Positions 57,988 to 62,515 of a DNA stretch of 64,000 bases are shown here, piece after piece. The notes beneath the pieces were generated by a model that had not been told where the DNA came from, did no database searches, and saw only the letters and a list, made by a program, of their open reading frames with translations. The DNA lies in assembly GCA_965229715.1 (NCBI GenBank), contig CBDDJL010000001.1, forward strand, positions 138,725-202,724. The letters are read 5' to 3'. The position numbers and the translations under genes are program-made. The DNA comes from Rhodospirillales bacterium (lineage in GTDB: Bacteria > Pseudomonadota > Alphaproteobacteria > Rhodospirillales > Casp-alpha2). Each line of letters opens with the position of its first letter. The stretch's first letter is position 1.

Positions 57988-58247
57988 ATGGGAGATATTT
58001 CCGCCCGGGTTGAATTCCAGTCTGCGCCCCTTCCTCATAACGAGATGGGGCGGCTCGACAAGCTAAAATCCTATGAAATCCTCGATACCGCTCCCGAAGA
58101 AAACTTCGATCGAATAACACGCACCGTAGCCACGTTGCTCGATGTCCCGATTTCACTCGTAAGCCTCGTTGACGAGACCCGCCAGTGGTTCAAGTCACAT
58201 TATGGCCTTGATGTATCCGAGACACCGCGCGAGATGTCGTTCTGTGC
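57988..58247 (+). pseudogene. GAF-sensor histidine kinase, 5' fragment (interrupted by the IS1-family element)
   Basis: The start of the GAF domain (RLDKLKSYEILDTAPEENFDRITRTVATLLDVPISLVSLVDETRQWFKSHYGLDVSETPREMSFCA) stops being family-like exactly at nt 58247. Confidence 0.85.
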
Positions 58248-58287
58248 GGTAGTGGGTCAGTTTGAAAATGGTGGCGGTTGACGGACG

Positions 58288-58539
58288 GTGGCAACCGGGA
58301 CGGCACAATGCCATATTATGAGCATGACCAGTAAGAAGCCAAAACGTCCTCGCGACCCCAATCAACTTGCCAAGAGCATTGTCGATATTGCGACCGGTGA
58401 AGCCGAAGAAGAAGGGGTTGATCGGAAGCGAAGCAAGGCCGGAAAGAAGGGGGCAAAAGCGCGGACTCGTGCGTTGACGCCAGAGCGGCGCTCCGAGATC
58501 GCCAGTATTGCCGCAGAGGCACGGTGGAAGAAGTCTTAA
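58288..58539 (+). CDS. Small Lys/Arg-rich hypothetical protein (83 aa; may start at an internal Met)
   Basis: SKKPKRPRDPNQLAKSIVDIATGE...KGAKARTRALTPERRSEIASIAAEARWKK. Nucleic-acid-binding-like composition, located inside the element. Confidence 0.5.
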   Translation: MATGTAQCHIMSMTSKKPKRPRDPNQLAKSIVDIATGEAEEEGVDRKRSKAGKKGAKARTRALTPERRSEIASIAAEARWKKS

Positions 58540-58913
58540 CTGGACTGTTTCTCTAGATGTTCCAGCGCCTCTAGCGCTTTCCGTTCCTCATAATCTTCCG
58601 TGAAATCCAACTCAAACTGAATGGGTTCTTCGTTGGGGTAGGCGAAGTTCATGTGGTCAACATCCGACTTTGCCCGGTACACATCATTCGCAATGGAGTC
58701 TCGACGTTGTTTGGCGGCTTTCTGGCGAAGCTGTGGTGTGCCGCCTTTGTCCACGTCAAACCAAAGTGTGCGTTGCGCACCCTCTTCAATCAGGGTGACA
58801 CACTGTTTGGCGCGATATGTCGTGCCTTCTTCATCAACCCTCATCGCCTGTCGTAGTACAGACGACAACTGCCGACGATAAATCTTGTGAATGTCCTCTG
58901 GGTGTGGTCGCAA
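58536..58913 (-). CDS. Hypothetical protein; start unresolved (the frame stays open to 59018 without a start codon)
   Basis: The track ORF begins at TTG 58913. The same frame reads a protein-like SWNEWEDLTGEDANNPDDFIDWAVEHGR upstream. A strong AGGAGG-N5-TTG at 59026 lies in another frame. Confidence 0.45.
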   Translation of the reverse strand: MRPHPEDIHKIYRRQLSSVLRQAMRVDEEGTTYRAKQCVTLIEEGAQRTLWFDVDKGGTPQLRQKAAKQRRDSIANDVYRAKSDVDHMNFAYPNEEPIQFELDFTEDYEERKALEALEHLEKQSS

Positions 58914-59035
58914 CCTGCCGTGTTCTACGGCCCAATCAATGAAGTCGTCGGGGTTATTTGCATCCTCTCCTGTAAGGTCTTCCCATTCATTCCAAGAGCG
59001 TAAATCTGTTCTTTGTAGTTAGCCAACTTAACCTC

Positions 59036-60196: not shown

Positions 60197-60492
60197 CAGT
60201 GGTAATCCTCAATGGCCAGTATTCTTGCTTTCTGCGGTTCGGTGTCGCTGTCCAACTCAAAAATGAGCCGGTACTTTTTGTTGATTCTGATTGAGCGTTG
60301 GCCTTCGCGGTCTCCTTTCAGCTTTTCGTAATGCAGGCTCTTCCAGTTCCGAAGAGTCCGATCATCTGTGGCCGCCCGGAGAATGGTTAGCTTTCGGCGC
60401 GCGGACTGAATGACCGAAACAGGCAACCGGGTTGCGCCCGCCTTGTCTGTTTCGATGAGGGCCAATGACGGGTCCGCATACTCGATCTCCAT
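60196..60492 (-). CDS. higB: HigB-like (RelE/ParE superfamily) toxin
   Basis: 98 aa. RKLTILRAATDDRTLRNWKSLHYEKLKGDREGQRSIRINKKYRLIFELD...ILAIEDYH matches the HigB 'plasmid killer' pattern. It lies upstream of the antitoxin, as in higBA operons. Confidence 0.8.
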   Translation of the reverse strand: MEIEYADPSLALIETDKAGATRLPVSVIQSARRKLTILRAATDDRTLRNWKSLHYEKLKGDREGQRSIRINKKYRLIFELDSDTEPQKARILAIEDYH

Positions 60493-60598
60493 ACGTTCTT
60501 GTACACGTTAGATAGAATGAGATCAATAGTAATTTAACGCATCGCATTAAACTGACCGGAATGCTTGACAAAAGCCTCGGAATGGTCAGAATGAACAC

Positions 60599-61483
60599 AT
60601 GAGAAAGCTCGACCCCAAACAGCGCGGCCAAATTCTTCACCTGCTTTGTGAAGGCAACTCGATCCGTTCAATTGAGCGCATCACGGGTTGCAGTAAGAAC
60701 ACCATATCCAAGCTTCTCGTTGATGCTGGTAAGGCGTGCGCCGCCTATTACGATGAGTATGTGCGTGACGTTCCGGCAACGCGGGTCCAGTGCGATGAAA
60801 TCTGGTCCTTCTGCTACGCCAAGCAGCGCAACGTGGCGACGGCGAAGGCGGCTCCTGCCGAGGCCGGCGACGTGTGGACATGGACCGCATTGGACTCCGA
60901 TAGCAAGCTGATCGTGTCTTATCTAGTCGGCGGTCGCGATGCGGGTTACGCCCACGAGTTCATGCAGGACGTAGCGTCACGTCTCGCCAATCGCGTTCAG
61001 CTTACGACCGATGGTCACAAGCCCTATCTTGAAGCCGTTGAGGGGGCGTTTGGCGCTGGCGTCGATTACGCCCAACTCGTGAAGATGTATGGTGCCGCGC
61101 CAGAAGCGCACAAGGGCCGCTACAGCCCCGCCGAATGCACCGGCGCGAAGAAGCGCCGCGTTGAAGGCAATCCGAATCCGAAAGACGTAAGCACGTCGCA
61201 CGTCGAGCGAAACAACCTCACGATGCGGATGCACATGCGCCGGTTCACTCGACTGACCAATGCCTTCTCAAAGAAGATCGAAAACCACGCTCACGCCGTG
61301 GCGTTGCACATGACCTATTACAACTTCGCTCGCCAGCATAAGAGCCTCGACGGTCTTGCTCCGGCGATGGCGGCTGGCGTCTCGGATCGGCTCTGGGGAA
61401 TTGAGGATATTGTGGCACTTGTCGAGGCTGCGGACCCGAAACCGACGAAGCGTGGTCCCTACAAGAAAAAGAATTCAAACTGA
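60599..61483 (+). CDS. IS1-family (single-ORF subgroup) DDE transposase
   Basis: N-terminal HTH ([22 protein letters not shown]). Also [48 protein letters not shown] and [31 protein letters not shown]. The stop codon lies inside the right IR. Confidence 0.8.
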   Translation: [294 protein letters not shown]

Positions 61484-61492
61484 CCCACTACC

Positions 61493-62515
61493 TTCTGTGC
61501 CCATGCATTGTCAGGGGATGATGTTTTCTTTATTCGCGATGCGACTCAAGATGATCGGTTTCGACAAAATCCGCTGGTAACGCACGATCCGTCGATCCGT
61601 CTTTATGCGGGAGCCCCCCTCAAGACTTCCGACGGATACAGGCTGGGCACTTTATGTGCCATCGATAGCAAACCTCGCGACCTTTCGTCTGAACAAAGGC
61701 AAGTGCTGACAGACATGGCCGCGATGGTTGTTAATGAACTGGAGCTTCATAGGCTTAATCTATCGCTAGAGCATCAGATCGCTGAGCGAACAAGGGAGCT
61801 CACTCAGGCAAGAGATGATGCCGATAGAGCAAATTTCGCTAAGTCTGCCTTTCTTGCCAGCATGAGCCACGAAATTCGGACTCCGTTGAACGCCGTCATC
61901 GGATTTGCGGAGGCGTTGGAGGTAGGCGTCAATGCCGATGAACCGGATAAACGCCGTGAGACACTGCAGATCATCTCTTCGGCTGGACGTCAGCTCAACA
62001 ACCTGATTGGAGACATTCTCGATTTTGCCAAAATCGATGCGGGAAAATTCGAAGTCAGGCTTGAAGAGACCCTTGTTAGCGAGGTCTTTCTAGAAAATCT
62101 TCCGATAATTCAACACATGCTTGATGAGAAAGGTGTGACTCTCAAGAGGATCAAGAACGCCGACAAAAGAGTGCTGGTCGATCGTTACAGACTGACCCAG
62201 ATACTCCTCAATTTCGTGTCGAACGCCGCGAAGTACAACTGTAAAGGAGGGAAGGTCGAGCTTGGGTGCTTCGAAGTGCCTAAAAATGAAATCAGAATTT
62301 ACGTCAAGGATACGGGTATCGGTATTCCAGAACTAATGAAGAACAGAATCTTCATGCCGTTTGAACGGGTTAGAAATTATGATCGTGACATTGCTGGCGC
62401 GGGCTTGGGTTTATCAATCTGCAAGCGACTGACGGAGGAAATGCGCGGGAAGATCGGGTTTGAGTCTAACCAAGATCAGGGTTCTACGTTCTGGGTTCAG
62501 TTTCCAGTCGTATAG
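61493..62515 (+). pseudogene. GAF-sensor histidine kinase, 3' fragment (rest of GAF + HisKA + HATPase_c)
   Basis: The frame reads F-C-A-H-A-L-S-G-D-D-VFFIRDATQDDRFRQNPLV...IRLYAGAPL...LGTLCAIDSKPR, then FLASMSHEIRTPLNAV (H-box) and an ATPase domain (GLGLSICKRL). It resumes exactly at the duplicated TTCTGTGC. Confidence 0.85.

Follow-up and report, generated by a model that had tools for sequence, protein, structure and literature searches.

A cargo-carrying IS1-related element in a Rhodospirillales bacterium and its probable place in a lineage of transporter insertion sequences

When toxin-antitoxin (TA)-like genes lie between the ends of an insertion sequence (IS), are they cargo that moves with it, or were they enclosed by a local accident? 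The question is raised by a 3245-bp, cargo-carrying element (58248–61492) in a 64,000-nucleotide (nt) stretch of DNA from a Rhodospirillales bacterium (GCA_965229715.1, contig CBDDJL010000001.1, positions 138,725–202,724), which is referred to here as the window. The original prediction for this locus described an IS1-family element with a HigB/HigA-ImmA module as its passenger, and listed open reading frames (ORFs) of 294 (+), 98 (−), 386 (−), 125 (−) and 83 (+) amino acids (aa) within it. It is probable from our analysis that the element is intact, that its insertion was recent and that it belongs to a widespread, mainly alphaproteobacterial lineage of IS1-related “transporter” IS with a fixed chassis and a slot that is reloaded with different cargo. 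The chassis, as we propose it, runs from the left terminal inverted repeat (IRL) through the small gene orf83, a variable cargo slot, a promoter between two inverted repeat (IR)-like half-sites, the transposase gene and an optional second slot to the right terminal inverted repeat (IRR). The features of the window copy are:

57988–62515 (pieces 57988–58247 and 61493–62515), plus strand: interrupted GAF-HisKA-HATPase_c histidine kinase gene, from in-silico excision
58240–58247: target-site duplication (TSD), left copy, 8 bp, TTCTGTGC, identical to 61493–61500
58248–58266, plus strand: IRL, GGTAGTGGGTCAGTTTGAA, 19/19 complementary to 61474–61492
58318–58539, plus strand: core accessory gene orf83, small basic protein of about 71–73 aa, hidden Markov model (HMM) match in 62/62 TSD-verified elements
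58536–59026, minus strand: frameshifted third gene of the cargo, family C3 (usual length 163 aa), base deficit at about 58994–58996
59036–60196, minus strand: cargo gene for a HigA-type helix-turn-helix (HTH) fused to an M78 (ImmA/IrrE) metallopeptidase, 386 aa, Pfam HTH_3 and Peptidase_M78
60196–60492, minus strand: HigB-like (RelE-fold) cargo gene, 98 aa, Pfam HigB-like_toxin (PF05015) at 41.5 bits with a cut-off of 27
60547–60557, minus strand: IR-like half-site TTAAACTGACC (reverse complement GGTCAGTTTAA), about 54 nt 5′ of the transposase start, at the right edge of the cargo slot
60565–60592, plus strand: predicted sigma-70-type transposase promoter, TTGACA-16-CAGAAT, 10/12 in a consensus scan
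60584–60595, plus strand: IR-like half-site GGTCAGAATGAA (the earlier “relic IRL”), overlapping the −10 hexamer, 10/12 match to the inner IR
60599–61483, plus strand: single-ORF IS1-family Asp-Asp-Glu (DDE) transposase, 294 aa, N-terminal HTH, catalytic D66/D138/E203
61474–61492, minus strand: IRR, including the stop codon of the transposase gene
61493–61500: TSD, right copy, 8 bp, TTCTGTGC

The boundaries of the element are as originally described, with perfect 19-bp repeats at both ends and the 8-bp duplication directly outside them. A search of the window for GGTAGTGGGTCAGTTTGAA with up to three mismatches returned just two matches, both of them element ends, where none were expected (100 shuffles). 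In-silico deletion of 58248–61500 joins the flanks into a single uninterrupted ORF of 424 aa with GAF, HisKA and HATPase_c domains, and the insertion point lies within the GAF domain. Perfect ends, duplication and restored ORF together therefore describe a simple, clean insertion into the GAF domain of a histidine kinase. The kinase gene is knocked out as a result, with modest practical consequence for the host genome. Metagenome contigs scanned with the restored kinase for an empty site yielded only distant relatives (at most 45% identity over full length); these are colinear across the insertion point, which suggests only that the restored architecture is the normal one and does not amount to a true empty site.

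Relatives of the element were collected in a scan of one genome per species, which gave at least 587 transposase relatives; the best 80 of these, 62–75% identical and mostly from Alphaproteobacteria, are among the more than 80 loci compared here (L numbers). Using the family IR consensus GGTAGTGNNTCANTTTGAA, we could delimit 70 elements with sizes of 2256–6242 bp, of which 58 are flanked by a perfect 8-bp duplication and 4 more by one matching at 7/8 positions, giving 62 TSD-verified elements. The duplications are diverse, with no evident target specificity. A bare IS of about 1 kb was sought among the delimited elements and none was found: all 62 TSD-verified relatives carry cargo, which leaves no cargo-free member among them for the earlier idea of an IS that chanced to capture a TA module. 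Two of the relatives match the window element over its whole length: L166 (3243 bp, duplication GGCGGCCT) has 78% nt identity over element positions 1–3245, and L083 (3250 bp, duplication ACGCCTTC) has 66%. L004, L006, L008, L010 and L012 are likewise colinear five-gene homologs at unrelated sites with their own duplications. Because the duplication flanks all 3245 bp, excision restores the ORF and colinear homologs occur elsewhere, each with its own 8-bp duplication, the element reads as a single mobile unit that, judging from sequence, would transpose as one piece with its cargo, as had been predicted.

Several loci (L021, L033, L037, L041, L053, L065, L071) have good IRs at both ends and unrelated 8-bp flanks, a combination that recombination between two copies, or adjacent deletions, would be expected to leave. 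The largest member (L002, 3762–10003, 6242 bp, perfect duplication AGGCGCCG) has a 967-aa ORF in the second slot, downstream of the transposase gene. Family members are also found in metagenome-assembled genomes assigned to Gammaproteobacteria, Nitrospirales, Acidobacteriota, Dehalococcoidia and Binatia, which suggests wide horizontal spread or else some binning contamination.

The small gene next to the IRL was listed at 83 aa, and its likeliest start is ATG 58318 or 58324 (71–73 aa), as in its homologs. A profile HMM of orf83 finds a homolog in 62/62 verified elements, always on the transposase strand and adjoining the IRL, so we regard it as a chassis gene and not a passenger; of the four passenger ORFs proposed earlier, three thus remain as cargo genes. 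The protein has an isoelectric point of 10.6, more than 900 homologs and the conserved sequence PKRPRDPNQLAKxIVDIATGE...GGKARAxALTPEQRSEIAxxAAQARWKK. It matched nothing in Pfam, NCBIfam or PADLOC, and its AlphaFold2 (AF2) model of three helices (predicted local distance difference test, pLDDT, 78) gave no match at E ≤ 10 in a Foldseek search of the PDB. The label “histone H1”, which is given occasionally in public records, looks like a composition artefact. The orf83 gene and the convergent third cargo gene share a 4-bp overlap of their stop codons (TTAA, 58536–58539), and this overlap is kept in 66%-identical relatives (L083 4639–4642, L084 556–559); the left edge of the M78-type cargo is therefore tightly packed against orf83. 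A segment matching the orf83 HMM (E 1e-6 to 4e-10) is contained in P63C-domain cargo proteins of 324–403 aa with a YdaS-like HTH (L030, L038, L040, L055, L066, L072, L079, L080), so the basic motif of the core protein recurs as a module of certain cargo proteins.

Between orf83 and the transposase promoter lies the slot, the content of which differs from element to element:

PD-Lambda-2_B-type HTH-M78 protein with a 163-aa partner: 11 elements, PD-Lambda-2_B match in 11/11
Rosmer RmrA: about 7 elements, RmrT in 4 of them, RmrA E as low as 1e-132
P63C-domain proteins: 8 elements
STAND/AAA ATPases: 7 elements
MazF: 3 elements
DUF6941 three-gene set: 3 elements
GmrSD/HEC-06: 2 elements
Fic: 2 elements
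Panacea: 2 elements
Gp49 with HTH: 2 elements
SDH-type ClpP-like protease: 2 elements

Bro-N proteins and many unannotated ORFs are found there as well. Cargo types are scattered over the transposase tree, close transposase relatives differ in cargo, and homology to relatives with other cargo resumes at element position ~2300–2314, which is exactly the promoter-proximal IR-like site. In the window copy the cargo has a GC content of 50.8% and the transposase gene one of 57.9%. This combination of variable content, scattered types, a boundary at that site and a GC contrast argues that a defined slot has had its content exchanged repeatedly. A second slot, past the transposase gene, is present in some members. 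In a copy on an Acidiphilium plasmid a RES-Xre pair lies directly downstream of the transposase gene, and the ends found (2634 bp) appear to exclude the pair.

The slot of the window copy holds an operon on the minus strand with the order HigB-like gene, HTH-M78 gene and third gene. The HigB-like and M78 genes share an ATGA, in which the stop of the first overlaps the start of the second; the third gene has a GGAGG ribosome-binding site and begins 10 nt past the stop codon of M78. The 386-aa protein is, as proposed, a HigA HTH fused to an ImmA/IrrE domain with an HEXXH motif (HEIEH, aa 257–261, window 59414–59428), and matches TIGR02607 (antidote_HigA) at 48.4 bits with a cut-off of 47.7. The PADLOC model PD-Lambda-2_B matches it at 7.5e-35 (119 bits), with residues 19–348 corresponding to profile positions 67–379 of 402, compared with a weak 1.5e-07 (28.7 bits) for the best RmrA model. 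RmrT models did not match the window cargo proteins, and PD-Lambda-2_A did not match the HigB-like protein at E ≤ 0.01.

PD-lambda-2 is a validated three-gene abortive-infection anti-phage system in which component A is HigB-like, component B is a HigA-HTH-peptidase protein that is toxic alone and rescued by A, and component C is “related to a P4 phage antitoxin” and needed for defence (Vassallo et al. 2022, PMC9519451). The window operon has the same three-gene order, HigB-like, HigA-HTH-peptidase and small third protein, and its component B matches the PADLOC model nearly over its full length. Unlike PD-lambda-2, it is known from its genes alone, its third gene has an orphan fold and is frameshifted, and some relatives are without the HigB-like gene. 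As far as the best match can tell, the operon appears to be related to PD-lambda-2; in the HigB/HigA module of the original prediction the two homologies hold, both models matching, but the simple pair has to be replaced by a three-gene module.

The third gene had been listed as a hypothetical ORF of 125 aa (58536–58913), which turns out to be the C-terminal remnant of a frameshifted 163-aa gene. Its span is 491 nt where 492 are expected, and nearly all homologs have 163 aa; the N-terminus, ANYKEQIYAL, falls in another frame, and one added base at ~58994–58996 gives 163 aa. The deficit lies within 58990–59000 (GCTCTTGG), where homologs encode A-L-W, and reflects either a real, inactivating lesion or an error made in sequencing a short run of T. 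The module of this copy may therefore be partly disabled. The third gene accompanies the M78 protein in 11/11 elements. No PADLOC model matched this family of 11 members at E ≤ 1, nor did Pfam, and the AF2 model (pLDDT 87) gave a best template modelling (TM) score of at most 0.36 (E > 0.001) in a fold search of the PDB and BFVD. An assignment as PD-lambda-2 C was rejected, since it has no PADLOC, Pfam or fold match to support it despite the matching position. The HigB-like gene is present in only some of the elements with the M78 and C3 genes; because several relatives are without it, the conserved pair is M78 plus third gene, which is reminiscent of the logic of Rosmer.

This bears on whether the cargo could be a plain HigBA addiction module, stabilizing the element or its replicon by post-segregational killing and playing no part in phage defence. 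Such a module would fit the HigB-like and HigA matches, the RelE-fold HigB-like gene upstream of and overlapping a HigA-type HTH gene as in type II HigBA systems, and the classic TA genes of other members (MazF, Fic, Panacea, and RES-Xre by the Acidiphilium plasmid copy, apparently outside its ends). We nevertheless consider it unlikely. The HTH-M78 fusion matches PD-Lambda-2_B far better than any simple antitoxin, the constant partner is the 163-aa third gene and not HigB, which several relatives lack, and recognized defence systems (Rosmer, GmrSD/HEC-06) occupy the same slot. A two-component HigBA system would not have the M78 domain that is added to the antitoxin-like protein or the third gene that is always found with it, and in PD-lambda-2 it is the HTH-peptidase that is toxic and the HigB-like protein that rescues, the reverse of the HigBA roles. 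Post-segregational killing would also be of little gain to a chromosomal single-copy IS.

It is distinctly unlikely that the element is an immobile relic, that is, a formerly active transposon decaying in place. The single copy in the window, the lack of an identical copy in the collections searched and the frameshift in one cargo gene would be expected of such a relic. Against it stand the IRs at 19/19 and the duplication at 8/8, a frameshift that could be a homopolymer sequencing error, and a target gene that has no further lesions and is exactly restored by excision. The transposase, moreover, is full length and keeps all residues that are at least 98% invariant in the family, including D66, D138 and E203, which are invariant among 60 family transposases. 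The perfect ends, the intact transposase and the otherwise undamaged target gene thus point to a recent event, as the reading of the element as a transporter IS with exchangeable cargo supposes.

To which family this transposase belongs is a question of distant similarity. Pfam DDE_Tnp_IS1 matches it at 35.1 bits (cut-off 24.1) with coverage limited to residues 198–238, Pfam HTH_38 also matches, and the NCBIfam model transpos_IS1 (NF033558) gives E 7e-18 and 65.2 bits with a model cut-off of 100. IS1595 models (Pfam DDE_Tnp_IS1595, NCBIfam) did not match at E ≤ 0.1. We rebuilt InsAB′ of the annotated Escherichia coli IS1A and compared it with a profile of 60 family transposases, which matched at E 9.5e-12 in two colinear blocks, first the HTH (IS1 52–86) and then the catalytic-glutamate block (IS1 186–226); identity to IS1 is just ~31% across 45 residues. 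Plasmid-borne relatives with 64–70% identity are labeled “IS1 family transposase” by the Prokaryotic Genome Annotation Pipeline (PGAP). A more distant IS1-family relative from Deinococcus, with a 25% identical transposase, is a bare 1178-bp IS that has the same IR tip as the window element, GGTAGTTGG. The model matches, the colinearity with InsAB′, the PGAP labels and the Deinococcus tip, less the missing zinc finger and frameshift, are the reason for filing the protein as what its sequence indicates, a distant single-ORF IS1-family transposase, and to this extent the proposed IS1 type with an N-terminal HTH is upheld.

In the ISfinder tables, IS1 ends follow the consensus GGnnnTG and duplications are 8–9 bp long; both fit the IRs of the window element, which start with GGTAGTG, and its 8-bp duplication. 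Like IS1 (E. coli IS1A/IS1B), the element has a DDE transposase with an N-terminal HTH and an IS1-type catalytic-glutamate block. Unlike IS1, its transposase is encoded by one 294-aa ORF for which no slippery site is needed, in place of insA/insB with their programmed frameshift and InsA zinc finger, and the elements of the lineage are three to eight times longer, always with cargo and a conserved extra small gene. ISfinder recognizes single-ORF IS1 subgroups, and its IS1 tables include a subgroup reaching several kilobases.

The bare Deinococcus element (Deinococcus wulumuqiensis plasmid pDrdI, L173 2250–3427) has 29-bp IRs beginning GGTAGTTGG, and a Phd/YoeB TA pair lies just beyond its right end, adjacent to the IS and not within it. 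On a Sphingomonas daechungensis plasmid (L172), an IS1-family transposase of 392 aa with 31% identity to the window protein has small hypothetical genes and an “ABC-three component system protein” as neighbors; inverted repeats were sought there and none were convincing.

The original prediction had noted a weak IRL-like sequence, GGTCAGAATGAA, just upstream of the transposase start and had suggested that it may be the relic of an original left end. The sequence is present, but its match to the IR is confined to the inner 12 nt and does not include the GGTAGTG tip, and it overlaps the −10 of a promoter whose surrounding block, ATGCTTGAC...TAT, is shared by 67 loci as a conserved feature. It is paired with the half-site TTAAACTGACC, which has the opposite orientation, lies upstream of the −35 and is conserved in position in the family. 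Of 26 internal sites family-wide that match the inner IR of the element they lie in, 14 are no more than 70 nt 5′ of the transposase start, in ~2% of the sequence. The half-site pair is best read as putative sites to which a DNA-binding protein of the element binds in autoregulation, and less well as a vestigial end. InsA represses by acting at the ends of IS1, and the IR-like sites at the window promoter recall this arrangement. Many members (L044, L032, L036 and others) have an imperfect palindrome, TGCTTGAC-N-TAAGCA, over the −35 hexamer, ~35–20 nt upstream of the transposase −10, perhaps as an additional operator; in the window copy its place is taken by TGCTTGACAAAAGCC.

A nested origin, in which an ordinary 0.9-kb IS1-like IS with its old left end at GGTCAGAATGAA lay beside an independent TA locus and an outer IRL was recruited later as a local accident, could appeal to the IR-like sequences just upstream of the transposase gene, to the GC contents of 50.8% (cargo) and 57.9% (transposase) and to the bare IS1-type relatives at ~25% identity, but it fails for this locus and is very improbable, being largely refuted by the identical chassis in 62/62 relatives at unrelated sites with no bare copy, by whole-element colinear homologs of 66–78% identity, and by an internal site that has no tip, sits on a conserved promoter and has at −54 a partner half-site in the opposite orientation, although it may describe the ancient origin of the whole lineage.

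We therefore return to the transporter IS with a fixed chassis and a reloaded slot. In this proposal the transposase would move the entire unit and produce the 8-bp target duplications, and the half-sites around the promoter would let either the transposase or the orf83 protein control transposase expression, comparable to InsA at the ends of IS1. The slot would be reloaded repeatedly with TA and anti-phage modules, which probably help the host to resist phage and the element to be retained. What we propose as functions for the cargo and the orf83 protein is inferred.

Several observations weigh against this proposal. The transposase scores below the cut-off of the NCBIfam IS1 model (65 vs. 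100), has no CxxC...CxxC N-terminal segment corresponding to the InsA zinc finger and is made without the programmed frameshift of IS1. A second copy, identical or nearly so, was found neither in the window nor by looking up the exact transposase and M78 sequences, nor in a search of metagenome contigs with an exact 30-mer spanning the IRL, and megablast of the whole unit against PLSDB plasmids gave no match. A true empty site from a close relative was sought in metagenome contigs and none was found. The 80 loci are the best of at least 587, and cargo-free members could occur among the others. Neither the orf83 protein nor the third cargo gene product has a fold or family match, and the HigB-like and third-gene proteins match neither PADLOC PD-Lambda-2 A nor C, so that defence is extrapolated from component B alone.

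The element and its cargo can be compared with three further known systems. Transporter IS of the IS1595 and IS66 families were reportedly described by Siguier, Gagnevin and Chandler in 2009. The transporter IS (tIS) is an established category, defined by IS-type ends, one transposase and passenger genes within the IRs (TnCentral). The window element resembles a tIS in its simple terminal IRs, single transposase, target duplication and three cargo genes inside the IRs. It differs from the IS1595 and IS66 cases in that its transposase matches IS1 models and no IS1595 model, and in that cargo is universal in its clade and not sporadic, with a defined slot and a conserved accessory gene.

For Rosmer systems, Millman et al. 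in 2022 are said to stand alongside Ernits et al. as a source. Rosmer (RmrT/RmrA) comprises HTH-ImmA-peptidase TA/defence systems (Ernits et al. 2023, PMC10440598). The window cargo is similar in pairing an HTH and M78/ImmA protein with a variable small partner, and true Rosmer systems occupy the slot of ~7 sister elements; the window protein itself, however, matches RmrA weakly (28.7 vs. 119 bits), and its partners are unrelated to RmrT models. Tn7-like transposons also carry defence cargo (Benler et al. 2021, PMC8649781), and the variable cargo of the window lineage is similarly rich in defence and TA systems. Unlike these large, multi-protein, site-targeting elements, members of the lineage have 2.3–6 kb, one transposase and no evident target specificity.

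In the literature searched, no IS1-type lineage was found described in which cargo is always present together with a conserved accessory gene and defence/TA modules, and an ISfinder entry is possible. It is conceivable, and we suggest it tentatively, that the element belongs to a large and apparently uncatalogued lineage of IS1-derived obligate cargo carriers, with at least 587 copies in species-representative genomes, in which orf83, a self-regulated promoter and a reloaded slot spread anti-phage and TA modules among Alphaproteobacteria and beyond. If so, candidate new defence genes would be found among the uncharacterized occupants of the slot, such as the DUF6941 trio, the P63C proteins, c19/c21/c26 and the 163-aa third gene. 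Should the family picture hold, the tIS concept would extend to the IS1 family, with a lineage in which cargo is the rule, and the line between IS and transposon would blur further. The lineage would also provide a very small, single-transposase carrier for the horizontal spread of phage-defence and TA modules, complementing the much larger Tn7-like, integrative and conjugative element (ICE) and prophage carriers, and genes between orf83 and the conserved promoter would be strong candidates for new defence/TA functions. A cargo-carrying unit is not surprising in principle; what it gives is a concrete chassis for mining defence genes, readily recognized by the IR consensus, the orf83 HMM and the transposase. 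The universal presence of the small protein raises the question of its role in the lineage.

Outside the element, ~200 bp past the interrupted kinase gene, a 414-aa ORF for an IS5/IS1182-type transposase (DUF772, DDE_Tnp_1, DDE_Tnp_1_6) is found at 62718–63962 on the minus strand. This region, which runs close to the window edge, has 63–66% GC compared with 48–58% nearby, and the transposase ORF and the GC shift together identify a second mobile element next door.

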